A DNA stretch of 64,000 nucleotides from Terriglobia bacterium (GTDB lineage: Bacteria > Acidobacteriota > Terriglobia > 20CM-2-55-15). A program made the position numbers and the translations under genes. The stretch spans positions 1 through 64,000 of the forward strand of contig CAXWPJ010000007.1 in NCBI GenBank assembly GCA_963664115.2, read 5' to 3'. Positions 2,828 through 55,017 of this stretch are shown one piece after another. A model generated the notes under the pieces. That model ran no database searches. It was not told the origin of the DNA and saw only the letters and a program-made list of their open reading frames with translations. Position 1 is the first letter of the stretch. Every line of letters starts with the position of its first letter.

Positions 2828-4674
2828 CCCTGAACAAGCGTGATTGACGAGGAAATGATAGTGCAATAAGAGCGGAAGTACCCGAAATGCCCCCTCTCCG
2901 TGCGAAAAAAACCTTGAACAGATTCTTCGGAAAAGGAGGCATTTCAGATGAACGATTATACGCGCAAGAACATGAGGAACCGCAAGCGGCGAATCGAACG
3001 TCGGCTTGGGGACCGGCATTGGACGGATCAGGTAGAGCCGATGTTTTCGGCGAGCAACATTCAGTACGAGATGGGAGAGCGGACGCGGGGCACATCGGTT
3101 GGTGGTATCGGGACGATGCAACTGGTGGCGCGGCGGACCGGGCTGATCGAAGCCATCGACAAGGGCGTGCATGTGTTGAAGCGGCACCTGCCGTATCACG
3201 AGTCGGATCACGTGCTGAACATCGCCTACAACGCCTTGAGCGGAGGAACGTGCCTGGAAGACATCGAACTGCGGCGCAACGATGCGGTGTATCTGGATGC
3301 GCTGGGAGCGCAACGGATTCCGGATCCGACGACGGCGGGAGACTTCTGCCGGAGATTCGAGGCCGACGACGTGGAGTGTCTGATGGAGGCAACCAATCAA
3401 GTCCGGCTCGGAGTCTGGCGACAGCAACCGGCGGCGTTTTTCGAAGAAGCGGTGTTGGACGCGGACGGGACACTGGCCGAAACCACGGGGGAATGCAAGC
3501 AAGGGATGGACGTGGCCTACGACGGGACGTGGGGATATCACCCGCTGATGATCTCGCTGGCCAACACCGCCGAACCGCTGTATCTGGTCAATCGTAGCGG
3601 CAACCGGCCGTCGCATGAAGGAGCCGCGGTCCGGTTCGACCAAGCCATCGCATTGTGCCGGCATGCGGGGTTTCGCCAGATCCTGCTGCGCGGGGACACG
3701 GACTTCAGCCAGACCCGGCATCTGGACGGATGGGACGACCAGCAGGTGGGTTTCATATTCGGGATTGACGCGATGGCGAACCTGAAGGCCCGGGCCGATG
3801 AACTGGAGCCGCGCCAGTGGAAGCGCCTGGAACGGCCCGCGAAATACGACGTGGCGACCGAACCGCGCCAACGTCCCGACAACGTGAAGGAAGAGATCGT
3901 TCGGCAGCGCGGTTTCGACAATATCCGCTTGCAGGGTGAGGATGTGGCCGAGTTTCGGTATCGACCCGGAGCCTGCGATCGGGACTACCGTGTCGTCGTG
4001 GTGCGGAAGAATCTGTCGGTGGCCAAAGGAGAGCAGGTGTTGTTTGACGACATCCGGTACTTCTTCTACATTACCAACCGTTCGGATCCGGCCGACCAGA
4101 TTGTGATGCGTGCCAATCAACGGTGCAATCAGGAGAATCTCATTGAGCAGTTGAAGAACGGCGTTCAGGCGTTGCGGATGCCGGTCGGAGATCAGACCAG
4201 CAACTGGGCCTACATGGTGATCGCGTCACTGGCCTGGACACTGAAAGCGTGGTTTGCATTGCTGCTTCCCGAAACCGGACGTTGGGGCCAAAAATATCAG
4301 GCTGAGAAGCAAACCGTGCTGCGCATGGAGTTCAAAACCTTCTTGAACGCTTTCATGCTTGTGCCGTGCCAACTCGTGCGCACCGGGCGGCGCATTCTGT
4401 TCCGGATCCTGGCCTGGAACCGGTGGTTGCCGGTCTTGTTCCGCGGGGTGGATGTGTTGCGTCAGCCTCTGCGATGTTGACCCGATCATGACTCTGAGCC
4501 CGGGCGATCGAGGTCCCGGTTTCTGTCAACCGTCCAACACCAGCGAGGCCGAACTGAAACAGATTCAACAGAAACTCGATACCTGGAACAGGCCATCCGG
4601 GAACGGGATTCTATGCCTCGAATTCTATCGGCGCGAACTGGGCCTCGGCGGACTGGTTATGCGCTTGTTTTGGG
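2828..4674 (+). mobile_element. IS1380-family element, complete copy
   Basis: IRs CCCTGAACAAGCG / rc CCCAAAACAAGCG; ACTAGA duplicated at 2822-2827 and 4675-4680. Confidence 0.9.
2948..4480 (+). CDS. IS1380-family transposase
   Basis: LDADGT, GYHPL, LRGDTDF and ENLIEQLK motifs; 510 aa. Confidence 0.92.
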   Translation: MNDYTRKNMRNRKRRIERRLGDRHWTDQVEPMFSASNIQYEMGERTRGTSVGGIGTMQLVARRTGLIEAIDKGVHVLKRHLPYHESDHVLNIAYNALSGGTCLEDIELRRNDAVYLDALGAQRIPDPTTAGDFCRRFEADDVECLMEATNQVRLGVWRQQPAAFFEEAVLDADGTLAETTGECKQGMDVAYDGTWGYHPLMISLANTAEPLYLVNRSGNRPSHEGAAVRFDQAIALCRHAGFRQILLRGDTDFSQTRHLDGWDDQQVGFIFGIDAMANLKARADELEPRQWKRLERPAKYDVATEPRQRPDNVKEEIVRQRGFDNIRLQGEDVAEFRYRPGACDRDYRVVVVRKNLSVAKGEQVLFDDIRYFFYITNRSDPADQIVMRANQRCNQENLIEQLKNGVQALRMPVGDQTSNWAYMVIASLAWTLKAWFALLLPETGRWGQKYQAEKQTVLRMEFKTFLNAFMLVPCQLVRTGRRILFRILAWNRWLPVLFRGVDVLRQPLRC

Positions 4675-5505: not shown

Positions 5506-7064
5506 CCCTGAACAAGCGTGATTGACGAGGAAATGATAGTGCAATAAGAGCGGAAGTACCCGAAATGCCCCCTCTCCGTGCGAAAAAAACCTTGAACAGA
5601 TTCTTCGGAAAAGGAGGCATTTCAGATGAACGATTATACGCGCAAGAACATGAGGAACCGCAAGCGGCGAATCGAACGTCGGCTTGGGGACCGGCATTGG
5701 ACGGATCAGGTAGAGCCGATGTTTTCGGCGAGCAACATTCAGTACGAGATGGGAGAGCGGACGCGGGGCACATCGGTTGGTGGTATCGGGACGATGCAAC
5801 TGGTGGCGCGGCGGACCGGGCTGATCGAAGCCATCGACAAGGGCGTGCATGTGTTGAAGCGGCACCTGCCGTATCACGAGTCGGATCACGTGCTGAACAT
5901 CGCCTACAACGCCTTGAGCGGAGGAACGTGCCTGGAAGACATCGAACTGCGGCGCAACGATGCGGTGTATCTGGATGCGCTGGGAGCGCAACGGATTCCG
6001 GATCCGACGACGGCGGGAGACTTCTGCCGGAGATTCGAGGCCGACGACGTGGAGTGTCTGATGGAGGCAACCAATCAAGTCCGGCTCGGAGTCTGGCGAC
6101 AGCAACCGGCGGCGTTTTTCGAAGAAGCGGTGTTGGACGCGGACGGGACACTGGCCGAAACCACGGGGGAATGCAAGCAAGGGATGGACGTGGCCTACGA
6201 CGGGACGTGGGGATATCACCCGCTGATGATCTCGCTGGCCAACACCGCCGAACCGCTGTATCTGGTCAATCGTAGCGGCAACCGGCCGTCGCATGAAGGA
6301 GCCGCGGTCCGGTTCGACCAAGCCATCGCATTGTGCCGGCATGCGGGGTTTCGCCAGATCCTGCTGCGCGGGGACACGGACTTCAGCCAGACCCGGCATC
6401 TGGACGGATGGGACGACCAGCAGGTGGGTTTCATATTCGGGATTGACGCGATGGCGAACCTGAAGGCCCGGGCCGATGAACTGGAGCCGCGCCAGTGGAA
6501 GCGCCTGGAACGGCCCGCGAAATACGACGTGGCGACCGAACCGCGCCAACGTCCCGACAACGTGAAGGAAGAGATCGTTCGGCAGCGCGGTTTCGACAAT
6601 ATCCGCTTGCAGGGTGAGGATGTGGCCGAGTTTCGGTATCGACCCGGAGCCTGCGATCGGGACTACCGTGTCGTCGTGGTGCGGAAGAATCTGTCGGTGG
6701 CCAAAGGAGAGCAGGTGTTGTTTGACGACATCCGGTACTTCTTCTACATTACCAACCGTTCGGATCCGGCCGACCAGATTGTGATGCGTGCCAATCAACG
6801 GTGCAATCAGGAGAATCTCATTGAGCAGTTGAAGAACGGCGTTCAGGCGTTGCGGATGCCGGTCGGAGATCAGACCAGCAACTGGGCCTACATGGTGATC
6901 GCGTCACTGGCCTGGACACTGAAAGCGTGGTTTGCATTGCTGCTTCCCGAAACCGGACGTTGGGGCCAAAAATATCAGGCTGAGAAGCAAACCGTGCTGC
7001 GCATGGAGTTCAAAACCTTCTTGAACGCTTTCATGCTTGTGCCGTGCCAACTCGTGCGCACCGG
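5506..7064 (+). mobile_element. IS1380 second copy, 3'-truncated (transposase ORF 5626-7149 has a foreign C-terminus)
   Basis: Matches copy 1 from the left IR up to ...GTGCGCACCGG, then ACTAGA and hsdS sequence. Confidence 0.9.
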
Positions 7065-7147
7065 ACTAGATCACGTACGCGCAGTACCTCCCACTCCTTC
7101 GGAATCACACCCACCTCGGTCTGCTTGTAGCCCGGCCTCACTTCCAT
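7065..7147 (-). pseudogene. hsdS: Type I RM specificity subunit, first ~27 codons only
   Basis: MEVRPGYKQTEVGVIPKEWEV is a classic HsdS start and overlaps the hsdM stop; cut by IS1380. Confidence 0.85.
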
Positions 7148-9865
7148 GAGAAACCCATCCGTGTGAGGTGTCCGTTGACTTTCTGCTCTAGGTCGGTCAT
7201 CTTGTTGACCATTTTCGGGAGCGGAGTTTTGTAGCGTTCGGCCAACTCCTTCACGCGCTTTGTGAGGGCCTGGCTGATTCGGTCCATTTCGCTGTGAATG
7301 GTGGCATCGAGCGCATCGAGCCATTTGTCGTCGACCACTAGAGTCTTGATTTCATCTTCCGTCAGCTCGGGATACTTGGCATAGGCTTTGGCATCAAGTT
7401 TGGCCTCCGCTTGTTTCAGTTTCGTTTTCTGCTCGCTAATTTCATCTGTTTGTTCGAGGTAAGCACCAAGCACGCACAGATCATCGAGGTCTTCATCGTT
7501 GGGTTCCGCTTGGAGTCGTTTCCGGATAGAAGTTGTCTCTTTCGCTAAGAGGTCCGAGACGGCCTTCTTGGCTTTCTTTTCTTCGGCCGTTCTTGCCTTG
7601 TACTGTTCGAGCAGGGCAAGTTCGTCAGGGTCGTCTGAGGCTTTCAGACGGGCGTTGAGGCTTTTCTGGGTAATTTTCCCTTTAGCATTGGTAAGCGCCG
7701 CGAGGTGCGGCTCGGCTGTTAGTTCCATCAGACCTTGCCGTGCTTCGTCTCGCTCCACCACGGCCTGCATGTATCGCTCAAACGTCTTCGCATTAGAGGA
7801 CTGCCATATGCTGAGAAGTGCTTCATGCCAAGAACTTAGTGCTTCGGTCTTGTTATCCACCCCATTGAGTGTGCCTTCTTCGCCGCCGTGTTCCTCTTCC
7901 AACTCCGTCAGTCTTGCTTGGAGAGTTTCTAATTCGTCCTCGTGCTCGCGAATGATGTCCCGCGCATCGGGGAAATAGCGGTTCACTATGAGTTGCTTTG
8001 GCACCAGATCGCAGGTCCAGCCAACGTCCTTCTCCTGCCCCTTCTTCTTGCCATTCTTGATCTTTTCCAGGACACGGTAGGTTTCGACTGCCCAACCGTC
8101 AACGGCAATGATGTAACAGTCGTCCTGCATGGTCTCGTCCCAGTAGTCCATGAGGCGTTGGTAAACGTCGTAGGGATCGATCAGCGGCTTGTTCCCGTAA
8201 TGAGCTAGGAGGTCGTCGGAGAGGGCGGCAATGGTTTCCTTCGGATGGCAGCCGGTTTCCAACGCCTTGAGCGTCCCGGCGGACTTTTGCCGCCACTCAG
8301 CGAAATGGGTGTTCATTCCTTCGATGAAGGCGGGGAACTCCGGGTGCTCGTAAATGGCGGACTTTATAGCTGTCTTGTCGACGGCGAGGTCGAGGTAGCC
8401 AGGCCGGTTTCCTTTGAACAAGACCTTCTGTAGCTGAGGGCAAACGTTCCAGTAGCGATCAAGCGCATCGACATCATCAGCAGGGATACCGCCGCGGAGA
8501 TGTCCTTCGATGTCCTGGAGGTCCTCGGGAGTCTGACTGTCGATATAGCGCGGCAGATTGAGGTTGAACTCGTTCTTCTCGATCTCCTCAAATGAGACCA
8601 TCCGTGCGTACTTCGGGACTTCGAGCTGCTTATCGAAGACATCCACTATCTTGTGAATGTCCTGAGAGCGGAGTCGGTTCTTGGGGCCGTCCTTCATAAA
8701 ACTCGCGCTGGCGTCGACCATGAAGATACCTTTACGGGCTTGGGCGTCCTGTTTGTCGACGACGACGATGCAAGCTGGGATCCCGGTGCCGTAGAACAGG
8801 TTTGCCGGTAGGCCAATGATTCCTTTGATGTAGCCCCGGCGAACCAGATTGCGGCGGATGTCTTCTTCGGCATGGCCCCGGAACAGCACTCCGTGCGGCA
8901 GAACGCAAGCTCCCGTTCCGGTGCTTCTGAGCGAACGAACGATGTGAAGTAGGTAGGCATAATCGCCCTGTTTGGCCGGTGGAACGCCGAACCGCGTGAA
9001 GCGTTCGTAGGGATCCTTCAGTGGATCGAGACCCGTGCTCCAGCGTTTGTCGGAAAAGGGCGGATTGGCGATGACGTAGTCGAACGTCTTGAGCGTGTCG
9101 CCGTCCTTGAACTTCGGATCGGTCAGCGTATTACCTTGCCTGATGAGAGCCGTCGGGCTGTCGTGCAGGATCATGTTCATCCGCGCGAGACCGCTCGTGG
9201 CGGCGTCCTTTTCTTGCCCGTAGATCGTGACGTCGGTGCTGGCCTCGTCGCCTACCTTGAGTAGCAACGAACCTGAACCGCAGGTCGGATCGTAGACCGT
9301 CGTGTCGCTGCTAGTCTTCGCTTCTCGGATGCCGACGATCTGCGCGATGATGCGGCTAACTTCGGCGGGGGTGTAGAACTGGCCCTTGCTCTTGCCGCTC
9401 TCGGTGGCGAAGTGCCGCATTAGATATTCGTAGGCGTCGCCCAAGATGTCGTCGTCGTCGGCACGGTTCTTCGAGAAGTCGAGCGCGGGGTTCTCAAAGA
9501 TCGCGATCAGGTTGGTGAGCCGTTCCACCCTTCTCCTTGCCATCACCGAGTTTGGTTGGGTCGTTGAAGTCCGGAAAATCGGACTGAGAAAGCTGTTGGT
9601 TGGCCTTTGCAAGTGGTCCAACGATCTTTTTGTTGATGTCGTCGCCGATGTCCTTCGTGCCCTTGAGCGCGACCATATCCTTGAAGCTCGCGCCGTCGGG
9701 AATGACGATCGGGGCGTACGCCTCGCCGGCGTATTTGTCGCTGACGTATTTGATGAAGAGCAGGACAAGGACGTAGTCCTTGTATTGAGAGGCGTCCATG
9801 CCGCCACGCAGTTCGTCGCAGCTACTCCAGAGCGAGCTGTAGAGTTCAGATTTCTTTAGAGCCAT
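7138..9865 (-). pseudogene. hsdM: Type I RM methyltransferase M subunit with one frameshift (~9528-9530)
   Basis: MALKKSELYSSLWSSCDELRGGMD in ORF 9494-9865; GQFYTP, DPTCGSG and NPPF in ORF 7138-9807; deleting one G restores LGDGKEKVERLTNL. Confidence 0.9.
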
Positions 9866-42879: not shown

Positions 42880-43275
42880 TCAATCCCTAACTTTTCAGCT
42901 GTTTTAATTCCGTTCAGACTGTCTGCTAATACGTTGACAGTATGCGCCTTCTCGTCAAAGTCACACCCCATCCCTTTTTGGCTGTTTTTGGGTGTCTTCA
43001 GGCGTGTTGGTAGATGTTGTTAAATGCGGTACCCTCGGACGCAACGCGATGTTTAAGAAGAACTGAACAAGCGGATTCAATATGTTCTCAGTGAAGCCGG
43101 TGGGGACACGGATGAAGTGGCCTTTTGTCGGCCGCCTATCACTGCTTTCGGTTCTCTTTACGTTGGCACTGCGCTTGCCACTATGTTTGTACGACCTTTT
43201 AACCGGGGAGCGATCAACGCCACTCCACTGTCAACGAACATTAACGTGATTACTACAACTTATTGAGGAGTGATT

Positions 43276-44271
43276 ATGGCTAAAAAAACGAACAGACGCG
43301 AGTTTGTCAAGGTCGCTGGACTGGCGGCCTCGGGCTGGATGGCGACGGCCCGTGCGGTGAGCGGAGCAGTTCCTGAGTCGCAGGGGCAACCGGCGCCAAG
43401 AACAATGGGTGCGCGCTTTCGCGCGTTGATGAATGGGCCGGAACCGCTTATATGCCCGAACGGTTATGACACGCTTACGGCTCGTCTGATCGAGGCTCAC
43501 GGCTTCAAAGGAGTGTTTATCGGCAGCAGTGTCGCTAATCAAGCCCTGGCCGGTATGCCGGACCAGGCGATCGTCACGGTGTCCGAGATCATCGAATATG
43601 ATAGTACTGTCGCCGCGAACGTGGATATTCCTGTCCTTGCGGATCTCGATGACTTCGGCGCCACGCCTCTCACTATTTACCGCCTCGCGCAAAAGGCTGA
43701 ACGCGGTGGGATCGGCTGCGCGGCCTTCGATGACCGAATGCCCCTCAACCGCGCCACGGCCTATGCCGTTCCGGGTGTCCACCCCAGGGCTCGCATGATC
43801 GACAATATTCATGCAGCAGCCGACGCGCGTACGGACATGGTCCTGATCGTGCGCTGTCTTGCGCCCACTCCGAATAATTCGTACAACGAGATGCTGGACC
43901 GGGCCGCCGCTTACGCCGAAGCCGGCGCTGACGCTGTGTGGCTGGGATTGCCGACGGCCGAAGACTACGTACAGGCTGCCGGCATGATCACGAAGCCGCT
44001 GATGGCTACCGTCGGTGGCGCAAATTTACCGGCAACGGCGGCCGCTATGCTAGCAGCTCGAATCACCGTGGGTCAGGTCCCCAGCATGGTAGACATTGCG
44101 TTAGGCGCCATCGACAGAACACTGGTCGAATTGAAAGCGACCGGACATAGGACCGAAGCAATAAAGGGGGCGCTGAACCGGGAGATGTCGCAGAAAATTA
44201 AGCAAGTTGAAGAACTCAATGCGCTCTCACGGAAGTACAATCTTCCCAGCGCCTCGGCTCCGGAACGCTAG
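43276..44271 (+). CDS. Tat-signal isocitrate lyase/PEP mutase-family protein
   Basis: NRREFVK twin-Arg signal; YDTLTARL, GMPD, PVLADLDDFG, RAAAYAEAGAD. Confidence 0.82.
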   Translation: MAKKTNRREFVKVAGLAASGWMATARAVSGAVPESQGQPAPRTMGARFRALMNGPEPLICPNGYDTLTARLIEAHGFKGVFIGSSVANQALAGMPDQAIVTVSEIIEYDSTVAANVDIPVLADLDDFGATPLTIYRLAQKAERGGIGCAAFDDRMPLNRATAYAVPGVHPRARMIDNIHAAADARTDMVLIVRCLAPTPNNSYNEMLDRAAAYAEAGADAVWLGLPTAEDYVQAAGMITKPLMATVGGANLPATAAAMLAARITVGQVPSMVDIALGAIDRTLVELKATGHRTEAIKGALNREMSQKIKQVEELNALSRKYNLPSASAPER

Positions 44272-44311: not shown

Positions 44312-45106
44312 GGCTCTGTCAACTTATCTTCCAACGGCCGAACCGATGGCATTTGGTCGCGAGTTGATCAGGCTGCCGTCACCGCTTCCCAAGTCGCAAA
44401 AGAACGCGCCCTCAACATGCGGTGGTGAACTGCTTTTAGTCTGTGCCTGGCCAAGCGGAAAAGATTCAGAACAACACCGTGAACATAGAGGAATCGTTGA
44501 GCGTGCGCAGGCGACTTGAATTTCCTCATCTGCCGTTCGTGCTGTCGGGTAGGTTGGTGTGAGGCTTCCGCTCGATTGTTCGCGTAACGTTCAGTGTCAT
44601 GATTCGTCGAAGGCATGATCGTCCGGAGCGCTGCGCCGTGACTCTTCAACTTATCGGTGACGATTCGCAGCGGAGTCTTTCCTTGACCTTTCAAGAGTTT
44701 GCGAAAGAAGCGCTCCGCTGCACGACGGTTGCGCCGCGACTGAACGAGGATATCGATCACGTCACCGTCTTGATCCACGGCACGCCACAGGTATTGCCGT
44801 TGACCGTTGATCGTCACGAAGACCTCGTCGAGGAACCCTGTATCTCCGAGTCGACCTTGTCGTCGCTTCAGGCGCTTGGCATAGTCGAGCCCGAACTTCG
44901 CACACCACCGGCGAATTGTCTCGTAGGACACGGTGATTCCTCGCTCGGCCAGCAAATCCTCGACTTCCCGAAAGCTGAGACTGAATCGATAGTAAAGCCA
45001 GACTGCATGCCTGATGATTTCAGCGGGATAGCGGTGTCCGTGGTAGCGGGATTGGGCGCTTTTCATCCAATCAGTGTGGCAGGTATGGTCTCAAGTTGAC
45101 AATGCC
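44312..45106 (-). mobile_element. IS6-family element
   Basis: IRs GGCTCTGTCAACTT / rc GGCATTGTCAACTT; about 795 bp. Confidence 0.9.
44368..45066 (-). CDS. IS6-family transposase
   Basis: AVWLYYRFSLSFREVEDLLAERG, LDE, YLWRAVD, NNRAE. Confidence 0.93.
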   Translation of the reverse strand: MKSAQSRYHGHRYPAEIIRHAVWLYYRFSLSFREVEDLLAERGITVSYETIRRWCAKFGLDYAKRLKRRQGRLGDTGFLDEVFVTINGQRQYLWRAVDQDGDVIDILVQSRRNRRAAERFFRKLLKGQGKTPLRIVTDKLKSHGAALRTIMPSTNHDTERYANNRAEASHQPTRQHERQMRKFKSPAHAQRFLYVHGVVLNLFRLARHRLKAVHHRMLRARSFATWEAVTAA

Positions 45107-45409: not shown

Positions 45410-45811
45410 ATGTCAGAATTTGGAGAAGCAACTGGAGAAGTCCTTGGACAACATCTGATCGCCGACATGACGGGGTTGTCCCCTGTCCTCCTGCGTGATG
45501 GTGAGCGGATCATGCATGTTCTTAACGACGCGTTGGCGCTGGCAGGTTTTCACTCCATCAGGAGCGTGGAACATCACTTCGTCGAGCGTGGTGCGGGATT
45601 TACGGGGATGGTCCTTTTGGCGGAATCCCATGCCGCCGTTCATACCTATCCCGAGCAGGAATACCTCGCGCTCGACATCTTCGCTTGCGGCGGTATCGAT
45701 CCATCCACCGTCATGGACGCGTTGGTTCGAGAGCTGGGTCCTACATCAGTCGACGTGCGGACTCTGACACGCGCTCCTCGCGCGAGCATTCCCGCGGACA
45801 GAAAAACCTAA
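45410..45811 (+). CDS. speD: S-adenosylmethionine decarboxylase proenzyme
   Basis: GQHLIAD, LAESH self-cleavage site, HTYPE, DIFACG. Confidence 0.93.
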   Translation: MSEFGEATGEVLGQHLIADMTGLSPVLLRDGERIMHVLNDALALAGFHSIRSVEHHFVERGAGFTGMVLLAESHAAVHTYPEQEYLALDIFACGGIDPSTVMDALVRELGPTSVDVRTLTRAPRASIPADRKT

Positions 45812-45865: not shown

Positions 45866-46873
45866 TCAGAAGGTCCACACGATCAGGATCGAAGCGCCGA
45901 TGTAGCCGAACGCTTCGAGGAGGCCGGCGCCGATGTTAGGATGTTCCTGCGTCTGTTCGTCGGCAAGTTTGACGCCCGGCGCCAGTAAGATGTCGGTGAA
46001 TTTGTGGACGAAGAACAACATGATGAAGCCAAATGTGACATCGACCGCGAACAGCATCAGGCTATCGGTCCAGCCGGTGAAATCGCCGCCGACTGCCACA
46101 CTGATGACATTGCCGATTCCGATGAGCGCTCCTCCGAACGCGAGGCCTACCGCAGCGTTATCTCTCTCCAGTTCTTCAAGAAACTTGTATGGGGTCACCC
46201 ACTCGTACAGTCGTCCGGCGATCACCAATACCACCTGGGCGAGTAACCAGAAAGCCAGTAGGACTAGCATGCCCGAACCCATGGCGCTGAATGCGCTCGC
46301 CGCGGGAGAAGCTCCCCCTAATTCGCCCTCGGTGGCACGGAGAATGATCAGGCCGTTGGCGATATATACGCCGGCCTCGACGTACCCCACGCCGAGGTTG
46401 CGATCTTGGACAATCTCTTTGGTGTTGTTGAATGTAGGCAGAAGGATTTTTTCGCACATGAAGCTCGCCAGAAGCATAAGGACGATTGCAGAAAGACCGT
46501 AGATAGCGATCGTAACCACGTCTGTTCCGAGACCCTGTGATTCGCCCGAAATCGCCCCACCGAAAGCGACCAGAATGCCGAAGTAATAGCCCACCGTGGA
46601 GATTGCGAGCGCCTGATTGTCCCGGGTGAAGAGTTCCGCATTCAACTCCACACGCCGATATAGACTGGAATAAGCGAATTTCGCGATCCACAAGAGAACA
46701 AACGCTTCGAGGATATAAACGAAGGATTCGCCGATTAGATACAAATTATCTACCAGAGAAACCTGCACCAACTGCGGCGTAGAAGTTTGCGCAGAGAGTG
46801 TAAATCCCAGTCCGGCGAATACCGGAGCGGCTAAGCCAAGTACGACAGCGAGAATGGCCGGCTGTTTGCTCAT
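45866..46873 (-). CDS. Multi-repeat DUF350 membrane protein
   Basis: Repeated E...DN.A.G/A motifs between TM pairs (RDNQALA, DRNLGVG, RDNAAVG, HPNIGAG). Confidence 0.82.
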   Translation of the reverse strand: MSKQPAILAVVLGLAAPVFAGLGFTLSAQTSTPQLVQVSLVDNLYLIGESFVYILEAFVLLWIAKFAYSSLYRRVELNAELFTRDNQALAISTVGYYFGILVAFGGAISGESQGLGTDVVTIAIYGLSAIVLMLLASFMCEKILLPTFNNTKEIVQDRNLGVGYVEAGVYIANGLIILRATEGELGGASPAASAFSAMGSGMLVLLAFWLLAQVVLVIAGRLYEWVTPYKFLEELERDNAAVGLAFGGALIGIGNVISVAVGGDFTGWTDSLMLFAVDVTFGFIMLFFVHKFTDILLAPGVKLADEQTQEHPNIGAGLLEAFGYIGASILIVWTF

Positions 46874-46904: not shown

Positions 46905-47660
46905 TCATTTTCCAAAGCTGCGCCCGCCTGAGACCGCCCGACTGCTTGCTCTGGCCTGAAAACGCGCCTGTTTGGCCTGATACCTCTGAGAGAAAGATGG
47001 CCGCGTTGTGGCAGTAGCCGTACCGTTCGCGCCGAAGGTGGGCCGTCCTCCAGTCTGAGGGCCGTAGTAGGGCTGTCCGCGATTCCTCGTGCCGACGTAG
47101 GTGCCGTAATCTCCCCGATTGATCCGGTGCCCACCCAACGCGGTCCTCATGAACGCGTACTGCCCGTAAAAAATCCAGAAACCGCCGGCACCAAAATACC
47201 CGTATTGGCTGCGACCCACATGCTGATAGTAGGGCGGGTGGCTCTGGTCATAGCCGGTCAAGGTGCCATCCGCATTCTTTGCGGCCACGACCATACCTAT
47301 GGATCGCTCATAACGGTCCACCAGACGGTCGGAGATCGAATAGGTGTTCACCTGTTCATCAAACTCGGCCGCCTCGCCCTCGTCGGGGTTCTCTCCGATC
47401 GGTTCAGCGACCAGGTAGCTGCTCTTGAGCGTCATCGAGTTCCGCAGAAATCCGTCGTCGACATCGTCCACGATGATCGAATACTCGGAATATTCGGCAA
47501 GCTGTCGCGCCAACTCTGGGACCGGGTCATTGCGCGACAGCCAGCCGCCGACTACCCAGAATCCCAGCAGTACCACGACGGCGACCATCCCTGCCTGGAT
47601 CCAGCGTTCCTCGCTTGTCTGCCTGGGCATCTCTCGACGCCTTGGATCATTTCTGTTCAT
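46905..47660 (-). CDS. Single-TM protein with Gly/Tyr/Arg-rich tail ending GGRSFGK
   Basis: N-terminal TM; GGFWIFYGQYAFM; low-complexity tail. Confidence 0.75.
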   Translation of the reverse strand: MNRNDPRRREMPRQTSEERWIQAGMVAVVVLLGFWVVGGWLSRNDPVPELARQLAEYSEYSIIVDDVDDGFLRNSMTLKSSYLVAEPIGENPDEGEAAEFDEQVNTYSISDRLVDRYERSIGMVVAAKNADGTLTGYDQSHPPYYQHVGRSQYGYFGAGGFWIFYGQYAFMRTALGGHRINRGDYGTYVGTRNRGQPYYGPQTGGRPTFGANGTATATTRPSFSQRYQAKQARFQARASSRAVSGGRSFGK

Positions 47661-47668
47661 GGTAGTTC

Positions 47669-48217
47669 CTAAGCGTCCCCACTCGGCAGGATGTTTGTGA
47701 ACTGATACTCTTCCACATATTCGCCGACGACAGACTTGAAATCCCTTTCTCCGTACTGCGTGACGAACAGTACATTGTTTCCTGTATCGTCACAATAGGT
47801 CCAACTGATGAAGTCTTTACCCGGGCCCTCGGCGTTTTCATGGAACCGACCTGCGCCGCTCTCCATCAGCCTATGGCTTCGCCCATTGCGGGTCAAGGTC
47901 TTAGGTGGATCTTCATGTCGGCGGGTATGTTCAATGACTTCTTCGGAGATCTCGCTGATAGAAATGCTTTCTGTCAGCGTCCAGGTGATCCCGTCGTCAC
48001 TCGCACGTTCCAGATAGAGGACCTTGTCGGAGGTTTCGAGCACCCATTCTCTGGTCTCGACTCCAGAGTAGTCGTAGGTATTGTACCCCTTGACCTCCCA
48101 GGTCTTCATATCGTAATCGACCAGATATCCAACCTTCATAACGCCCAGTTCAAAGTCCACCTGCGTGTCGGATTCTGCATCGTCTTGGCCACGGCCAAAC
48201 CATTTTTTCCATCCCAT
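47669..48217 (-). CDS. DUF4178-like protein
   Basis: Acidic, aromatic beta-rich sequence (YDYSG...EW.L, FISWTY.D..G); operon context. Confidence 0.7.
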   Translation of the reverse strand: MGWKKWFGRGQDDAESDTQVDFELGVMKVGYLVDYDMKTWEVKGYNTYDYSGVETREWVLETSDKVLYLERASDDGITWTLTESISISEISEEVIEHTRRHEDPPKTLTRNGRSHRLMESGAGRFHENAEGPGKDFISWTYCDDTGNNVLFVTQYGERDFKSVVGEYVEEYQFTNILPSGDA

Positions 48218-48246
48218 CTTTCATCATCCCCCTAGGGAGCATCGGA

Positions 48247-49839
48247 CTACCATCGAGCGAGATCGTCCCGATAATACCCCGCCAGAGTCGGTCGTGCCAA
48301 GGTATTAGGCTCGACCTCAACACGGGTCATGTCCGCATCAAAATGTAAATTGGCCAAGAACAATTCCTTGTTCAGGTAACGCAGCCCGGGCATAAACTGA
48401 ACGCTGCCAGGATCGATCGGTGCCTCGGACCCGATATGAAAGCCCCATTCGCCGAAGGAAGGTACGTAGGCGTGAAACGAGAGCACCTCGAGATCCGCTT
48501 CTTCCATCGATTTGCCGATACACCAGTAGGCCTGGCGCGTGTAGTAAGGGCTCGTCGCCTGAGTAATTACCACTCCTCCGGGAGCCAGATGCCGACGAAT
48601 CAGCTTGTACGCTTCGACCGAGAACAGTTTTGAGATCTCTTCTTCTCGCGGATCTGGAAGATCGATTACCACCACCGAATAGGGTTCGTGTTCCCTCTGC
48701 AGAAAACTAAACCCATCTTCGTTAATCACCCGGACCCGGGGGTGGCTCAGGGCGTTCCGGTTCAGGTCGGTAAAATAGAGATTGCGCCTGGCCAGCGTCG
48801 TCATGGCCGGATCGAGGTCCACCAGCTCGATCTCGTCCACCTCGGAATACCGCAGGATTTCACGAACGGCGAGACCGTCACCGCCGCCGACGACCAGAAC
48901 CCGTGCCCGGCTATGCGAAAACGCCATGGCAGGGTGGACCAGCGCTTCGTGATACCGGTACTCGTCGACTGAGGAGAACTGTAGATGCTCGTTCAAAAAG
49001 AGCCGGGTTTCATCCTTCCAGCGCGTAACCACAATCTTCTGATATTCGGTCTCCGTGCTGAAAACCACCTGGCCTTCGTAGAGGGAATCTTCCCACCGAT
49101 CCATCAGGGGCTGGGCTTGACTTGCGAATACAGCCAACACAGTAGAAATCAGGACGCCCTGGACGACGAGTCGTGCCCGGTCTCCGGCCGATATTTGGGC
49201 CCACACGGCGAGAAGGATGGCCGAACCAGCGGCAACGTTGAGGGCGCCGGCGAGGAGTGATGTATGAAACGCCCCGAGAACCGGCAAACAAAAGAATGGG
49301 AAGAGAACAGCGGCGACCAGAGCGCCAACGTAATCGACCGAAAGCACATTCGACAGGATCGTCCGCAACGATCCGTGTCTTCGCAGGATCCGTGTGAGGA
49401 GCGGGATCTCCAGTCCGATGAGCGTGCCGATGATCAGGATGATGACCAGCATCAGGTATTTGTAGACGCTGGTGTAGGCGTTCGCGAGGTACAGAGCGGG
49501 AACTGTCAGACCTCCGAACAACCCGAGCCACAGTTCCAACGCCACCAACCGCCGGATCAAGTTCCCGTGAACGGCCCTCGAGATCCACGAGCCCAGGCCC
49601 ATCGCGAAAAGAAAGAATCCGATCGTCAGCGAGTACTGTTGGACGCTGTTGCCCAGGAAATACGACGAGATACTTCCGACCAGTAACTCGTAGACGATTC
49701 CGCACGCCGCGGCGACGAAAATCGATGCGAGTATCAGGAACAGACCCAGCCGCGACAGCCTTTCTTCTCCCAACCCGACATCGTCGAACTCTAGTTCGTT
49801 GGGGGTAAGATTGGTGTCAGGTGTCTTGCTGATGCTCAT
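48247..49839 (-). CDS. speE: Membrane-bound polyamine aminopropyltransferase (spermidine synthase-like)
   Basis: About 7 TMs (CGIVYEL, GLEIPLL) followed by LQFSSVDEYRYHE, GGGDG, VDLD, IDLPDP, PSFGEWG. Confidence 0.92.
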   Translation of the reverse strand: MSISKTPDTNLTPNELEFDDVGLGEERLSRLGLFLILASIFVAAACGIVYELLVGSISSYFLGNSVQQYSLTIGFFLFAMGLGSWISRAVHGNLIRRLVALELWLGLFGGLTVPALYLANAYTSVYKYLMLVIILIIGTLIGLEIPLLTRILRRHGSLRTILSNVLSVDYVGALVAAVLFPFFCLPVLGAFHTSLLAGALNVAAGSAILLAVWAQISAGDRARLVVQGVLISTVLAVFASQAQPLMDRWEDSLYEGQVVFSTETEYQKIVVTRWKDETRLFLNEHLQFSSVDEYRYHEALVHPAMAFSHSRARVLVVGGGDGLAVREILRYSEVDEIELVDLDPAMTTLARRNLYFTDLNRNALSHPRVRVINEDGFSFLQREHEPYSVVVIDLPDPREEEISKLFSVEAYKLIRRHLAPGGVVITQATSPYYTRQAYWCIGKSMEEADLEVLSFHAYVPSFGEWGFHIGSEAPIDPGSVQFMPGLRYLNKELFLANLHFDADMTRVEVEPNTLARPTLAGYYRDDLARW

Positions 49840-51542
49840 TGAACTGCGCCCGTCTCTCCGGATAGACCCTTGATCGATGATTCGAATGTCCTGCCGAGGC
49901 GCTCCAGGACCTGTTCGGCCGCCCGGATGCCGGAAAAACAGGCTTCTTCGAACAGCGGCAGTCCTGTCGTGTCACACGAGGCGAAATACACGTTTCCGAA
50001 AGGCTCCCTCCGAGTGACGCTTTCTGGGCCCCATATGAGTCCCGGCCTCGGCCGGATCATGGCGTGACCCCACCGGTAAACGTCGATGCGGTCTACGACA
50101 CGCTCCAGGTCCGGATGGGCCAACAGTAGGTCCCGCATGATCACGTTGACCCAGTACGGATGTTCTTCTTCAAGGAGCTTTCTACGAGCAAGGTCGATGT
50201 CCTCGACGAACGGGAGATAATAAACCAGGATCGATGGGTTGTCTCTGTAGACCTGTCGGGTTTGATGATCAGCGACAATGTAGCCTAGGGATTGGCTGTC
50301 GCGGAGTACATTGTCCCACGCGATCGAGACTTCGGCGTTTGTGGGCAACTCGCTCACGTGGATACTGGCGGTCAGCCATGGGCTGTAATCACAGGATTCG
50401 ATCGCTTCTACCTGGGGCCGTGGCAATCCATCGACCAGGAAAGGCGCGGTGTGGAGCTTGGAGGCATGGATCACGGTTCGGGCCGAAATAGTGCGATATG
50501 TCTCACTCGGTGTATCGAAGTAGCCGACCCGAACGCCGGGATTGTCGTTATCGATGTTGTCGATGCGAAGCACCGTGCATCCGAGCCGGTATTGCGAGTC
50601 GTCCAGGTCTTGGGCTAAGCGTTGTACCAGAAACCCGTTTCCCGCGGGCCACGTCAACGTATCCGAAGGGTACTGGTCCCACAGCCGCTCGTCGTAGTAT
50701 CGGCAGGCGAAATAGTGAATGCCGGCCCAGGCCGACACGGTTGCCATCATGCTCCCGTAATCGTCCCGGCAAGCATAGTTGATCATCCAATCCAACCGTG
50801 GCGAATTCCATCCTTTGGAGCGGACGTAGGTTTCCATCGAAATCTTGTCGAGATCACGAACCCGGGAGTCCGTGGTGCTGTAGCTGAGAGGGAGTGCGAA
50901 TGCGCGCCGGCCGTCAAAACCGCGGTAAAGCGTCCAGGTCAGCATGTCGTCCTCAAAGGCAAGTATGGCTTCGCGGTCCTGGGTTGAGGCCCCGGCGAGC
51001 AGATCCCATTCGATCCATCTTCCGTCCATGAAGACACGTTCGGTGGGCCATCGCAGGATGTGTTGTTCGGGAATCCTCGGCCGTCCGGCCTCATCGTAGC
51101 CTTCGATTATGCCCAGGTCGGACAGGACTTCTTTGACGCAATCCGCTTCCGCGGGCGGAATATTGATGTAGTGTGCCGCCCAGGGGAATTCCGCGCCCTC
51201 TGCGCTTCCGGACGCGGAGGTGCCTCCAAGCCAGGGCTCCAGTTCGAGCAGGACAAAGTTGTCCAGTCCGGCCTTCATCAGCTTCCAGGCTGCGCACAGT
51301 CCAGAAACGCCACCTCCGACGATGGCGACGTCGTAGGTATGAGCATCAGGCTCGGGAAATCGATCGCGAGGGTGGGGTTCGCGCAGAAGATGCCCCGCCT
51401 GCTGGCCCCCCCCCACGATTTGCCCCGGAACTTTGAAGGTCCTCGGAGGCGGAGTGCCTGAATTCCAGCACGAAGGCACGACCGCCAGAAGGCTGCCGGT
51501 CGCGGAGAGGCGAAGGAACCGACGGCGTGTAAAGAACGACAT
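49836..51542 (-). CDS. Tat-lipoprotein FAD-dependent oxidoreductase (amine oxidase-like)
   Basis: TRRRFL plus lipobox-like VPSC; IVGGGVSG, RWGHAM, LFEEA. Confidence 0.85.
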   Translation of the reverse strand: MSFFTRRRFLRLSATGSLLAVVPSCWNSGTPPPRTFKVPGQIVGGGQQAGHLLREPHPRDRFPEPDAHTYDVAIVGGGVSGLCAAWKLMKAGLDNFVLLELEPWLGGTSASGSAEGAEFPWAAHYINIPPAEADCVKEVLSDLGIIEGYDEAGRPRIPEQHILRWPTERVFMDGRWIEWDLLAGASTQDREAILAFEDDMLTWTLYRGFDGRRAFALPLSYSTTDSRVRDLDKISMETYVRSKGWNSPRLDWMINYACRDDYGSMMATVSAWAGIHYFACRYYDERLWDQYPSDTLTWPAGNGFLVQRLAQDLDDSQYRLGCTVLRIDNIDNDNPGVRVGYFDTPSETYRTISARTVIHASKLHTAPFLVDGLPRPQVEAIESCDYSPWLTASIHVSELPTNAEVSIAWDNVLRDSQSLGYIVADHQTRQVYRDNPSILVYYLPFVEDIDLARRKLLEEEHPYWVNVIMRDLLLAHPDLERVVDRIDVYRWGHAMIRPRPGLIWGPESVTRREPFGNVYFASCDTTGLPLFEEACFSGIRAAEQVLERLGRTFESSIKGLSGETGAVQ

Positions 51543-51555
51543 TGCTGGATGATAC

Positions 51556-52257
51556 TCAGATGCCCATTTTCTTCTTGAGCTCAGCCAGCGAGTCGCTGGT
51601 CTCGGCCGAGCTGGGCACCGCAAGGGTTCTGTCAATCTCCTGGTCCAGGGTGACGCTCGCGTCTGTCATGTCTCCGTAAGCCTCGGCAAGCGACTCCTCC
51701 TCTATCACTTTGTCCTTCATCCTTTCCAGTAGTGCAATCGTACTGGAGGAGTCGGCGTTCGACATCTGCTGGTTGATTTTCCGCATCGATGTCGCCGTCT
51801 TGGCACGGGCTCTCAAGGTCACCAACTCGGTCTCGAAGCGGCTGATGGTTTCCTTCAGCGTTCCCACCTTCGCCTGGAGCTGGTCCCCCATGGATTTTTG
51901 CTGCTCGTAATCCTTCTTTAAGGAACCTGAGCGTTGGAGAGCCTCCTCCTTCTTGGTCAAGGCTTCAGTTGCCAGACGTTCCGCGTCAGCTTCGGGCAGA
52001 TCCCCGCTCTTCATTTTCTGGAGAAGAAGCATCGCTTTTCTTTCGTAATCCTTCGCAAGCTTTTTCTGGTCGTCCGAGTCTTTCTTGAAACGAATTGCGA
52101 TCGCTTTAACTTGCGCCAGACTCTGCATAGAGCCCTGCAGGTCTTTCTTCAGGTCGCGAATTCCCTGCTCGCTCATCTTGATCGGGTCTTCGAGCTTATC
52201 CGCGACCGAATGTGCCTGGGACTGCACGTTTTTGAAAATTCTTTGAAAAAAACTCAT
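51556..52257 (-). CDS. PspA/IM30 (bacterial ESCRT-III-like) protein
   Basis: MSFFQRI...LEDPIKMSEQ, coiled coil, ERMKDKV, LAELK. Confidence 0.93.
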   Translation of the reverse strand: MSFFQRIFKNVQSQAHSVADKLEDPIKMSEQGIRDLKKDLQGSMQSLAQVKAIAIRFKKDSDDQKKLAKDYERKAMLLLQKMKSGDLPEADAERLATEALTKKEEALQRSGSLKKDYEQQKSMGDQLQAKVGTLKETISRFETELVTLRARAKTATSMRKINQQMSNADSSSTIALLERMKDKVIEEESLAEAYGDMTDASVTLDQEIDRTLAVPSSAETSDSLAELKKKMGI

Positions 52258-52673
52258 TTGTCAGCTCCCCCCGACTGTCGGTGACTAAATTTCAGCAACT
52301 CTGGGCCGTTTTCGGCCAGGGCAAGCTCCAGCGACCGGATGGAGCCTTCCAACTCGTTACAATCCAGGTTTTCCAGTTGCAAGGTATCGCGGAAAAGGAC
52401 ACGGTTACCTTCTTCGTCATCGAGCACAAACGCTCCATGTACCATGGTTCGGTTCATCTGGAGGAGGCGTTTGAAGAAATCTCCAGCATCCTCGGGGACA
52501 TCCATGATGAGTTGTTCGAGGATGACGATTGGGGGTTCGCAGTCAATGATCAGGTTATGAATCCCATTCTCCTCATCCTCCACCACGATCAACTCTTCGG
52601 CTTCATCCTCGCTGACGATCTTGAGATCGATATCGAGCAGATAGCCCTTCACCAAGTCTAGGTTCTCGGACAT
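52254..52673 (-). CDS. YbjN/CesT-like chaperone-fold protein
   Basis: LLQMNRTMVHGAFVLD...FRDTLQLENLD. Confidence 0.78.
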   Translation of the reverse strand: MSENLDLVKGYLLDIDLKIVSEDEAEELIVVEDEENGIHNLIIDCEPPIVILEQLIMDVPEDAGDFFKRLLQMNRTMVHGAFVLDDEEGNRVLFRDTLQLENLDCNELEGSIRSLELALAENGPELLKFSHRQSGGADK

Positions 52674-52675
52674 GT

Positions 52676-53065
52676 TTACTTCTCCTGTCTGTTTGTCTCG
52701 CTCTGGGACCGCTTCCGTAGCCGCTCGTAAGCACCGTTCAACCGTTGCGTCAGTTCATCGGCTATTTTTAGTTTCTCGAGATCTTTCGAATGCAGATCCG
52801 GGTGGTATTTCCGTAACAGCCGTATCCATGCCTTCCGGACCGTGGCAAGGCTGGAACCATAGGGCACCTCCAGGTTGGAATAGAGTTCGGCCAACTCCGG
52901 ATCGATGCGCTGGGCGTTAGATTCGATATTTCTGCTACCGTGGCCCGGCCCGTGGGCCCGAGTCTGCCTTTGGCGTCCACGTGCCCGATCAGCGTGAATC
53001 CGTCCGTTCGAGCCAGCGTGGATCTGGGCTCGAATGAGGCGGATCACGCGGGTTGCCAGTTCCAA
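52676..53065 (-). CDS. Small J-domain protein
   Basis: LYSNLEV...VRKAW...KYHPD...LNGAYE. Confidence 0.85.
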   Translation of the reverse strand: MELATRVIRLIRAQIHAGSNGRIHADRARGRQRQTRAHGPGHGSRNIESNAQRIDPELAELYSNLEVPYGSSLATVRKAWIRLLRKYHPDLHSKDLEKLKIADELTQRLNGAYERLRKRSQSETNRQEK

Positions 53066-53194: not shown

Positions 53195-54253
53195 ATGCTC
53201 AGGTTGATTATGGAATGGTTCCGGCGCTTCAGGCCGGAAAGACACGGCGAAATCCGTAAGGTAATCCTCTTGTTTTCCGCCCTGACCGCCCTGGGTGCGG
53301 TCGGTTATAGACTTTTCGAGGGTGCTGCCGATCCCGAGCTGTCCTGGAACGATGCCATTTGGTGGTCGATCGTTACGATGACGACCGTGGGATACGGGGA
53401 CTATTTTCCAACGACCGCCTACGGTCGCTACCTGGTGGCGATTCCACTGATGTTTGTCGGCATCGGCATCCTTGGCTACTTGCTCTCGGTGATGGCAACT
53501 GCGTTGATTGAGTCGAGGTCAAAGGAGTTGAAAGGCATGACAGATCTCCACGTTGAATCCCATGTGCTCGTAGTGAATTTTCAAAGTGAAGGCCGGAATC
53601 TAGAGATTGTCAAGGAGCTGCGGGAGGACTCCAAGACAAAGGACCTTGCAATAGTGTTGGTCGATGACCACCTCGACGAGCTGCCGCCCGAACTGGGGAA
53701 ACTGGGTGTCCGTTTTGTGAAGGGCAACCCATCGAGGGAAAGTGTCCTGCGGCGCGCATGCGTCGACAAGGCGCGTTATGCGATCGTTCTTGCCTCGGAA
53801 GTGGACCCATCGCGCGCCGATGACCATACTCTTGCCGCGGCCCTTACAATCGAATCGATCAACCCCAACATCTTCACGGTCGCCGAATGCCTCGACCCTG
53901 AGCGTGTGGGACTGATGCGCCGATCGGGATGCGACAGCGTGGTCTGCGTGTCCGGTCTCGCATCGTCCTTCTTGGTTCAGGAGGTTTGCGATCCTGGCAT
54001 GCATGCCGTCGTCAACGAACTGATGTCAAACAGATTTGGTCAACAAGTCTACATCGTTCCGGTTGAACAAATGCAAAACTGGGAATTTTCTGAGCTGCAG
54101 GCACATCTTTCACGAAAAGGGTACCTTGTATTGGGAATACAACGCGGCAGCGAGGCACTGCTCAACCCAGGGAATGCGTACAAGATCGAAGCGAGCGATC
54201 ACGTCATCTGCATGGGGCCACACAGGCCCGCTCCGGTTCGGATCTCGAGCTAG
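53195..54253 (+). CDS. Two-TM potassium channel with RCK/TrkA domain
   Basis: TMTTVGYGD selectivity filter; RCK_N and RCK_C. Confidence 0.93.
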   Translation: MLRLIMEWFRRFRPERHGEIRKVILLFSALTALGAVGYRLFEGAADPELSWNDAIWWSIVTMTTVGYGDYFPTTAYGRYLVAIPLMFVGIGILGYLLSVMATALIESRSKELKGMTDLHVESHVLVVNFQSEGRNLEIVKELREDSKTKDLAIVLVDDHLDELPPELGKLGVRFVKGNPSRESVLRRACVDKARYAIVLASEVDPSRADDHTLAAALTIESINPNIFTVAECLDPERVGLMRRSGCDSVVCVSGLASSFLVQEVCDPGMHAVVNELMSNRFGQQVYIVPVEQMQNWEFSELQAHLSRKGYLVLGIQRGSEALLNPGNAYKIEASDHVICMGPHRPAPVRISS

Positions 54254-55017
54254 CGATCTTTGGTCGGTGACTGCGCCTTAGAACGTTTCCAGAATGCGGA
54301 TAGTCCTAACACCAGAACGCCCACTGAGATTGCTCCACAAACAACACCCCAGAACCAATACGGCAAGAATAGTAGATCTGCGAGCTGTGCAACGTCGGAG
54401 GGCATAGCTCCGGCACCAGTCATCGCGGTCTTGGTGAAGAGATAGTCCGCGCGCGAGAAAACACTGAGTGCCATCTGTACGGCTAGGACTGCGACAGTAA
54501 ACTGAGCGATTCCGGCACCAAAGCGTCTACCCACATAGAACAGGCTTCCACCCACTGCTCCGACGAAAGCAAACCCAAAGACGTTGCGTATGACCAGGAC
54601 GCAGGCAGCAATCATTAATGCTCCGAATGCCATGAGCGCGATCTGTGCAAGGCGCGCGCGGGCGGACAACCAAAACAAGAATGCTCCTGCAACTGCCGGT
54701 CCAATGAGCCCGCCCGCCGCTGTGGCCGCACGGCTCAATCGGCCCGCGGCGCCTCCTATCATGGCTACCCCGGACCCGTCAGCGTAGAGTCGGAAAGAAT
54801 CGAACTCCAGGCCAACCAACATTGCCGTCAGTCCGTGGCCCATTTCATGGGCCACGGTTGACAAGAGAAGAATCGGATAACCGACAACTCCACCAAAGGG
54901 AAGCAATGGCGCCAAGATGCCGACGGCTGTGGCCGCAGTCAACGCAGCTCTCGCACGCGCTCGGTCTGAGGATCCCTGGCGAATTCGTAAGGAATCGAAA
55001 AGTCGCTCGAAATTCAT
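54250..55017 (-). CDS. M50B-like intramembrane metallopeptidase
   Basis: HEMGH within a TM, AGGLIGP, SD motif; multi-TM. Confidence 0.82.
   Translation of the reverse strand: MNFERLFDSLRIRQGSSDRARARAALTAATAVGILAPLLPFGGVVGYPILLLSTVAHEMGHGLTAMLVGLEFDSFRLYADGSGVAMIGGAAGRLSRAATAAGGLIGPAVAGAFLFWLSARARLAQIALMAFGALMIAACVLVIRNVFGFAFVGAVGGSLFYVGRRFGAGIAQFTVAVLAVQMALSVFSRADYLFTKTAMTGAGAMPSDVAQLADLLFLPYWFWGVVCGAISVGVLVLGLSAFWKRSKAQSPTKDR

Follow-up and report, generated by a model that had tools for sequence, protein, structure and literature searches.

Possible extracytoplasmic aminopropylation of a lysine-ending protein tail encoded in a PspA-linked operon of a Terriglobia bacterium

We analysed a 64,000-nucleotide stretch of DNA from a Terriglobia bacterium (contig CAXWPJ010000007.1, positions 1 to 64,000; the window in the following), in which an operon encodes a seven-transmembrane (7TM) aminopropyltransferase, SpeE, together with an anchored protein whose flexible tail ends in lysine. 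Gene clusters of this kind have been noticed before. Li, Kurihara, Kim, Liang and Michael reportedly described in 2019 clusters of an S-adenosylmethionine decarboxylase (AdoMetDC), a fusion of a major facilitator superfamily (MFS) carrier with spermidine synthase (MFS-SpdSyn) and DUF350, with no acceptor named; our locus has the same enzyme pair and DUF350. A second group of operons defined by Ravi et al. in 2024 and represented by the SO_3765 region of Shewanella oneidensis MR-1 combines a CesT-PspA dyad with a 7TM synthase fusion, an eight-transmembrane DUF350 protein and DUF4178, and its supplement adds a lipoprotein with a low-complexity end ('LipoSIG+Ctha_1186+Low-comp') (PMC11237479). 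The authors proposed polyamine monitoring or 'aminopropylation of other substrates'; in their main text the word 'lysine' does not occur and the single 'tail' sits in a reference title, and their passages on this operon do not state on which side of the membrane the synthase domain lies. In their third group, operons of the YgiB-YgiC/YjfM-YjfC type likewise feature PspA and a K+ channel (PMC11237479). The operon studied here unites the CesT/Tir-PspA dyad, the 7TM synthase, DUF350 and DUF4178 and is of the published second type. It adds SpeD, an oxidase with a twin-arginine translocation (Tat) signal, a DnaJ-domain gene and a divergent K+ channel, and no RHH gene was seen at this locus. The original prediction, which spanned 46905..51542, had thus met a real operon, but one that runs past both of these ends and was already in print.

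Three further systems are relevant for comparison. Operons of the YgiB-YgiC/YjfM-YjfC type (Pederick et al. 2023, via PMC11762307) encode a DUF1190 lipoprotein and a GspS-like ligase and share with ours DUF350, the polyamine chemistry and a lipoprotein whose tail is rich in Gly, Ser and Arg; YgiC is presented there as a peptide-spermidine ligase with an unknown physiological substrate. These operons differ in that the enzyme is an ATP-grasp ligase, without a signal peptide at the loci read, and in that the partner ends in GG. Moreover, the partner families have no detectable homology to our tail protein beyond the lipobox, and no GSP-type ligase was found in this genome. Triglycine serves as a model substrate of YgiC. 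By domain make-up, a 7TM part joined to a SpdS-like domain, SpeE resembles the fungal NHMT (AN4663), which is described as modifying secreted proteins at a terminal residue once their signal has been cleaved, and as needing its membrane part (PMC10349129). NHMT is a methyltransferase, however, and its GxG(D/E)G motif contains Ile where SpeE keeps Asp. Aminopropyl units on Lys side chains of exported proteins are described for diatom silaffins (PMC3820600), but these are eukaryotic, the lysines are internal and the enzymes are only proposed in that source. In addition, the methods of one paper contain the conjugation of SUMO and ubiquitin to spermidine in vitro (PMC12270671). The relevant passages of PMC11107197, PMC10407285, PMC12568646 and PMC11841054 add nothing on the acceptor, and a full-text literature search, with subscription journals largely outside it, returned no publication naming a terminal Lys or a GG tail as acceptor. 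A polyamine tip on envelope proteins via a terminal Lys would be undescribed, if real.

The lysine-ending tail and its enzyme partners

In the reading that we favour, with a probability of roughly 0.55, SpeE aminopropylates the terminal side-chain amine of the anchored protein's last Lys outside the cytoplasm. The pairing of enzyme and tail is real, and from it we infer the chemistry. The tail protein (251 aa; 46905..47660, minus strand) has an N-terminal anchor, an acidic soluble domain and a Ser/Gly/Arg-rich Gly-Lys end. A single hydrophobic segment and the terminus SSRAVSGGRSFGK directly before the stop codon (46905..46946, minus strand; Lys251 is the proposed acceptor) confirmed the earlier description of a single-transmembrane protein with a flexible tail. 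Among 20,898 open reading frames (ORFs) of the genome it was the sole one to combine an N-terminal hydrophobic segment with a Gly/Ser/Arg-rich [GH]K end, and no Pfam family matched it above cut-off. The GK terminus was present in 28 of 30 close homologues, the other two of which look like frameshifted fragments. Similar results were obtained for 147 distant homologues, counted as new representatives at 50% clustering: 122 ended in GK and six in RR, and most others look like fragments. An unconserved GK end, the outcome that the original prediction had named as speaking against it, was thus not borne out. The last 30 residues of the distant homologues comprised 30% Ser, 18% Gly, 18% Arg and 1% acidic residues, and Gly was enriched at positions -6 to -8 across 49 GK-ending partners, 44 of which have one hydrophobic segment ahead of the tail. 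At least 90% of 64 aligned homologues have Cys at position 39, where this copy has Gly; most relatives are accordingly predicted to be lipoproteins, with this copy lacking the Cys. No Ctha_1186 model appeared among the Pfam and NCBIfam matches; the position, the lipobox of the relatives and the low-complexity end fit that label, and the Cys is absent here. Some homologues end in a run of Arg (L255:5992-6813, L258:2682-3470, P0175, P0196, P0199, P0205 and P0262).

A terminal Lys was also found beside SpeE at loci encoding quite different partners. We applied a blind rule, a co-oriented ORF of at least 40 aa with a GK end within 2 kb of SpeE, to the best 80 of 566 GTDB loci by SpeE similarity. 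The rule fired at 52 of the 80 loci, compared with 4/80 on the opposite strand and 17/300 at random places in this genome. DUF350 was encoded at 56 of the 80, of which 50 were found by the rule, three were missed through ORF overlap, two had HK and one was cut by the contig end; a terminal Lys was hence present at 55/55 untruncated DUF350-containing loci (53 GK, 2 HK; five of these assigned by eye). The carriers are unrelated and comprise microproteins of 51-91 aa, DUF4247, DUF4178 fusions and the tail lipoprotein family. When genomes were drawn at random from phyla, a Lys-ending partner lay within 1.5 kb at 55 of 66 SpeE loci (18/25, 9/11 and 28/30; three of the 66 repeat earlier loci), ending in GK 46 times, in HK eight times and in VK once. 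The expectation that partners end in Gly-rich GK tails therefore held for the Lys but not for an invariant Gly before it, as HK, VK and AK occur. In Bacillota, 7/7 membrane-type SpeE loci had a Lys partner, as opposed to 0/2 of the soluble type. In eight genomes where SpeE stands apart, the pair of Lys tail and DUF350 was located elsewhere in the genome. Among 201 sampled Acidobacteriota genomes, all 33 with SpeE had DUF350 and 32 had a Lys partner, the remaining one being unexamined. Viewed from the tail family, 81 of 85 loci were Lys-ending, two were open-ended and two were Arg-run enders without DUF350 downstream. The His-Lys tip occurs on microproteins at L066, L073, L125, L128, L149-L153, L162 and L206, and seven His-Lys loci form one clade of the SpeE tree.

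The last residue changes when the enzyme changes. DUF350 also occurs in ligase operons, including those of genomes in which no 7TM-SpeE was found. At Acidobacteriota DUF350 loci of genomes without SpeE, no Lys partner was seen (0/8), and a ligase adjoined DUF350 in three. The adjacent Gly/Ser/Arg-rich partners of 24 stand-alone GSP_synth ligases, a set that leaves out six bifunctional GspSA loci and one match below cut-off and whose ends were read by eye, ended in GG (17) or in GS, SS, FS or SG (7), never in Lys; one of these ligases matched E. coli YgiC at E 2e-160. The end of a DUF350 partner, GG next to a ligase and Lys next to SpeE, thus varies with the enzyme and not with DUF350. At the level of sequence, this GK/GG switch with enzyme type is a strong comparative argument for the Lys as the acceptor. 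Chemically, a C-terminal Gly-spermidine amide and an aminopropyl-Lys would be near-equivalent tips. When the profile of the tail family was compared with those of two sets of GG partners, only the lipobox aligned and, therefore, we do not claim common ancestry of the partner families. Likewise, the tail protein did not prove homologous to DUF1190 (hhalign probability 35%, lipobox only), and an Atlas feature score of 0.77 between them is a lead only.

The N-termini of the GG-ending ligase partners L081, L083-L085, L087-L089 and L107-L109 are long and basic and contain RR or RK motifs. Twin-Arg signals are clear in L089 and L107-L109, and the ligases carry no signal peptide at their start. If ligation took place in the cytoplasm and Tat export came afterwards, the two compartments of the GG branch would be reconciled. 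In Bacteroidota, 7TM-SpeE can stand divergent from a GG-ending lipoprotein and its ligase (L018:322-3996, L052:33-3449 and L106/L155, G268:C65), and speD is convergent in L018 and L106, which places both chemistries within one locus.

Orientation and chemistry of SpeE

The favoured acceptor can be reached only if the enzyme faces outward. SpeE (530 aa, PRK03612 family; 48247..49839, minus strand) has seven membrane helices within residues 30-240 according to AlphaFold2 models of the whole protein (110 alignment rows, pLDDT 89.7) and of the membrane part (65 rows, pLDDT 95.4) as well as family hydropathy, which gave no hydrophobic window beyond residue 255. In the model, transmembrane helices (TM) 1-6 (49183..49752, minus strand) adopt the six-helix MFS domain fold: residues 30-219 align with MFS halves (best VIA Z 19.1, root-mean-square deviation (rmsd) 2.4 Å, 177 aligned), and almost all of the 50 matches listed are MFS-fold carriers. 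Foldseek gave the same MFS families in rows above its E cut-off of 0.001, and PF07690 was detected in 4/65 members. The search of the PDB by sequence with the TM alignment gave nothing useful, and the MFS link rests on the model. The chain is one half plus TM7 and not a two-domain MFS protein with 12 TM. MFS halves start and finish in the cytoplasm and, therefore, the extra TM7 of SpeE would lead out. Moreover, Lys and Arg in loops 2, 4 and 6 outnumbered those in loops 1, 3 and 5 in 143/143 homologues (means 9.1 vs 1.6, with loop boundaries set by the analyst). Because of the MFS-half fold and the charge bias, the location of the catalytic domain outside the cytoplasm is well supported and is a strong prediction. 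The original prediction had argued from an odd number of about seven TMs with the N-terminus inside, and the helices, fold and charges agree with it; a cytoplasmic catalytic domain, which it had named as contrary evidence, is not what the predicted topology points to.

Acidic residues within the SpeE helices were conserved among the 143 homologues (E51 in 136, E102 in 142, E144 in 142 and D169 in 143; six of the seven E51 misses are alignment gaps). Four near-invariant acids would fit a path for a cation such as decarboxylated S-adenosylmethionine (dcSAM), which is suggestive only, and the half-MFS would probably need a second half, for example in a dimer or from a partner. Either DUF350 or the TM bundle of SpeE had initially been considered for moving dcSAM. 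As DUF350 also occurs in ligase operons, the transport of dcSAM is more plausibly assigned to the half-MFS of SpeE. We abandoned the idea of DUF350 as a dedicated dcSAM carrier, given that it also neighbours ligases in genomes in which no 7TM-SpeE turned up; being common to both systems, it more likely handles the tip.

The catalytic domain (48250..49077, minus strand), predicted to be extracytoplasmic, carries the motif GGGDG with D321. It has the aminopropyltransferase fold (1uir, Foldseek E 9e-17, rmsd 2.2), and the top PDB sequence matches of SpeE were a Thermus triamine/agmatine enzyme, Pyrobaculum SpeE and thermospermine synthase. An acidic residue in GxG(D/E)G is a mark of dcSAM binding (PMC10349129). 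This residue was Asp or Glu in 143/143 homologues, so that SpeE is not of the NHMT type with a non-acidic residue. Q267, Q287, Y296, H297, D375, D393 and D396 were invariant across the same set, and D341 is also kept here. With its acidic motif, SpdS fold and catalytic Asp D393, SpeE fits a dcSAM-using aminopropyltransferase, and its motif set is intact. R295 was considered as a binder of the Lys carboxylate and is unsupported in this role.

SpeE might nevertheless be an ordinary spermidine synthase tethered to the membrane, with a cytoplasmic domain and an unrelated tail. In favour of this, its partner is the sole AdoMetDC detected in the genome, which also holds putrescine genes and yielded no soluble SpeE; NCBIfam, too, labels the family polyamine aminopropyltransferase (NF002956, 602.6 bits vs a cut-off of 472, residues 28-528 covered). 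We regard this as highly improbable, since the MFS-half fold and the charge bias argue for the opposite topology, the score against the spermidine synthase model TIGR00417 speE was 133.2 bits vs a cut-off of 249.55, and the tail is conserved.

Three other SpdS-like matches in the genome scored below the PRK03612 cut-off and belong to long membrane fusions; a fourth match is weak. The three are MFS/SpdS-like fusions of 817-1062 aa (G000:C2:539016-539471, C1:82829-83311 and C6:95096-95548; L119-L121). In L120, the only one whose motif was read, Ala replaces the dcSAM-binding acid and, therefore, the long fusions may be methyltransferases of exported substrates like NHMT.

Evidence against a lysine acceptor and alternative roles of the tail

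Several observations weigh against modification of the Lys by SpeE. The link of the tail with DUF350 is no looser than that with SpeE: of 42 Lys-enders whose contigs extend 2.5 kb or more downstream, 20 had DUF350 but no SpeE in view, although many of these come from one metagenome and contigs cannot settle the presence of SpeE. In 13 genomes (seven Paraglaciecola/Pseudoalteromonas and six Bacteroidota, from three places in the tree) 7TM-SpeE lacked an adjacent Lys partner and a GSP-type ligase was present; the Lys partner was sought beside SpeE and not genome-wide, and the partner of the ligase ended in GG or SG where its gene was in view. As the catalytic residues are the same, SpeE must take another acceptor there, perhaps to lengthen an amine that the ligase has attached or to produce free polyamine. 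At about nine further loci, the flanks examined contained no Lys partner (L017, L019, L021, L027, L076, L124, L126, L129 and L137), and three myxobacterial genomes have a distant DUF350 module whose peptide was not confirmed by our filter. Related genomes are not independent samples. Charge favoured an N-in orientation in 29 of the 44 partners with one hydrophobic segment, which is less clear than for SpeE. Residues 159-177 of the tail protein are weakly hydrophobic and aromatic and were not called a membrane span in near-identical homologues; if they crossed the membrane, the tail would lie inside and out of reach. The proposed Lys-carboxylate binder R295 is present in 134/143 homologues and retained in GG-linked enzymes. 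The oxidase was encoded at 25 and SpeD at 38 of the 80 SpeE loci, many of which are short. Finally, both putrescine and agmatine can probably be synthesised, since the genome encodes a pyruvoyl arginine decarboxylase adjoining an agmatinase (G000:C2:1057456-1058867). The biosynthetic SpeA and ODC families were not found in the genome, where only LysA matched and nothing matched PF01276. The original prediction had pointed to the lack of a putrescine-synthesis gene in the island. No such gene is indeed there, but as arginine decarboxylase and agmatinase are encoded in the genome this argument is weak.

Comparison of the active sites of GG-linked and Lys-linked SpeE, in which loci otherwise unassigned were labelled GK by default, yielded only weak differences, for example K404 to R in 12/13. 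A complex prediction of SpeE residues 30-530 with S-adenosylmethionine and the last 32 tail residues scored 0.03 against a mark of 0.32 and counts neither for nor against the proposal.

The same observations bear on a different acceptor. An outward-facing SpeE could modify a small or lipid-linked amine, for instance a lipid head group, a polyamine at the cell surface or a diamine ligated to a GG tail, with the Lys serving as a DUF350 signal or as a substrate of the oxidase. The tail and DUF350 form the tightest pair, the 13 genomes run SpeE alongside a ligase system, putrescine genes are present in the genome, and D393 and D396, which we take to be diamine-site residues, are retained. Against this stands that the last residue of the DUF350 partner tracks the enzyme, with GG for the ligase and Lys for SpeE; the version with the oxidase substrate additionally conflicts with an oxidase at just 25/80 loci. 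Altogether, we consider a small or lipid-linked acceptor rather unlikely.

The oxidase is an accessory part of the system. It is a flavin protein of the amine-oxidase family (568 aa, PF01593 65.2 bits; 49836..51542, minus strand) starting at the ATG at 51542, and its matches in the PDB were limited to the FAD-binding motif. The twin-Arg lipoprotein signal proposed for it was recovered as TRRRFLR and Cys25, with a non-canonical lipobox, VPSC, that has Pro at -2. Among 25 homologues, 19 have a strict twin-Arg motif, followed by Cys in 18 of these 19; of the remaining six, four have a relaxed RR motif and two are mis-started frames. The oxidase is thus probably a Tat lipoprotein, judging from these motifs. 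An exported oxidase, the PspA link and an invariant last Lys on a flexible lipoprotein tail would also fit a role of the Lys as the nucleophile that tethers the protein to peptidoglycan, or as part of an aldehyde cross-link, with aminopropylation, if any, only lengthening the arm. Braun lipoprotein offers a parallel, being tethered to peptidoglycan through its terminal Lys. However, no transpeptidase-like gene is among the families annotated in the operon, and tethering by itself leaves the strict co-occurrence with 7TM-SpeE unexplained. We therefore regard a tether as the sole function of the Lys as improbable; as a later step it is compatible with aminopropylation.

Operon context, proposed mechanism and significance

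The operon is a run of eight minus-strand genes from the DnaJ-domain gene to DUF350 with intergenic gaps of -4 to 31 nt, and scans of the locus for promoters and terminators gave no more than shuffled sequence. It is headed by the small DnaJ-domain protein (52676..53065; PF00226 33.1 bits), followed by the CesT/Tir-like chaperone (52254..52673; PF22550 168.8 bits) and the PspA/IM30 family protein (51556..52257; PF04012 143.3 bits). The DUF4178 protein (47669..48217; PF13785 60 bits), which has no signal peptide, is encoded between SpeE and the tail protein. DUF350 (YjfL family, 335 aa with two repeats; 45866..46873) begins 31 nt past the tail gene, matches PF03994 in two stretches and has nine hydrophobic segments. 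On the plus strand and convergent with the operon lies the S-adenosylmethionine decarboxylase of the SpeD/SpeH type (45410..45811; PF02675 101.7 bits, TIGR03330 above cut-off), the sole AdoMetDC found in the genome. A two-TM potassium channel with a TrkA/RCK domain (53195..54253, plus strand; PF07885, PF02254) is divergent from the operon, and such a channel was seen at 10/80 related SpeE loci. Close relatives are found in metagenome-assembled genomes of Terriglobia and other Acidobacteriota. Neighbouring genes in the window encode an IS6/IS240-family transposase adjoining speD (44368-45066, minus strand), an M50B-like membrane peptidase whose gene converges with that of the K+ channel (54250-55017, minus strand) and a PEP-mutase/isocitrate-lyase family protein whose N-terminus resembles a twin-Arg signal (43270-44271, plus strand). 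Two long ORFs at 2948-4480 and 5626-7149 (plus strand) share identical first 50 residues and are probably copies of an insertion element.

The original interpretation is partly supported by the predicted topology, the conserved Lys terminus and the intact active site. In the mechanism that we favour, SpeD would make dcSAM in the cytoplasm and the acidic half-MFS of SpeE, probably paired with a second SpeE or with another half, would pass the cationic dcSAM outward. DUF350 would bind or present the tail tip, and one or more aminopropyl units (+57.058 Da each) would be added to the last Lys. The modified tip would be chemically close to the Gly-spermidine amide that ligases of the YgiC/YjfC type could make on GG-ending partners. 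Where present, the exported oxidase might trim or oxidise the tip. That the tip serves PspA-linked envelope maintenance is the weakest step of this proposal.

Taken further, both systems could belong to a widespread C-terminal polyamine tagging of envelope proteins by two unrelated chemistries with DUF350 as shared reader, a possibility that we put forward tentatively. An outward-facing, self-supplying half-MFS aminopropyltransferase would modify exported tails that end in Lys, GG-ending tails would receive spermidine from an ATP-grasp ligase while still in the cytoplasm, and the exported oxidase would be an eraser or cross-linker. If true, such tagging would name the substrates of MFS-SpdSyn fusions and of E. 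coli YgiC/YjfC. 7TM-SpeE is common, being present in 25/251 Pseudomonadota, 11/201 Bacteroidota and 33/201 Acidobacteriota genomes sampled; it is routinely labelled spermidine synthase, and its acceptor is an open question in print. The sequence evidence singles out one candidate residue per system. Aminopropylation of the terminal Lys, if true, would represent a new envelope modification, dcSAM chemistry outside the cytoplasm and the first function of DUF350.

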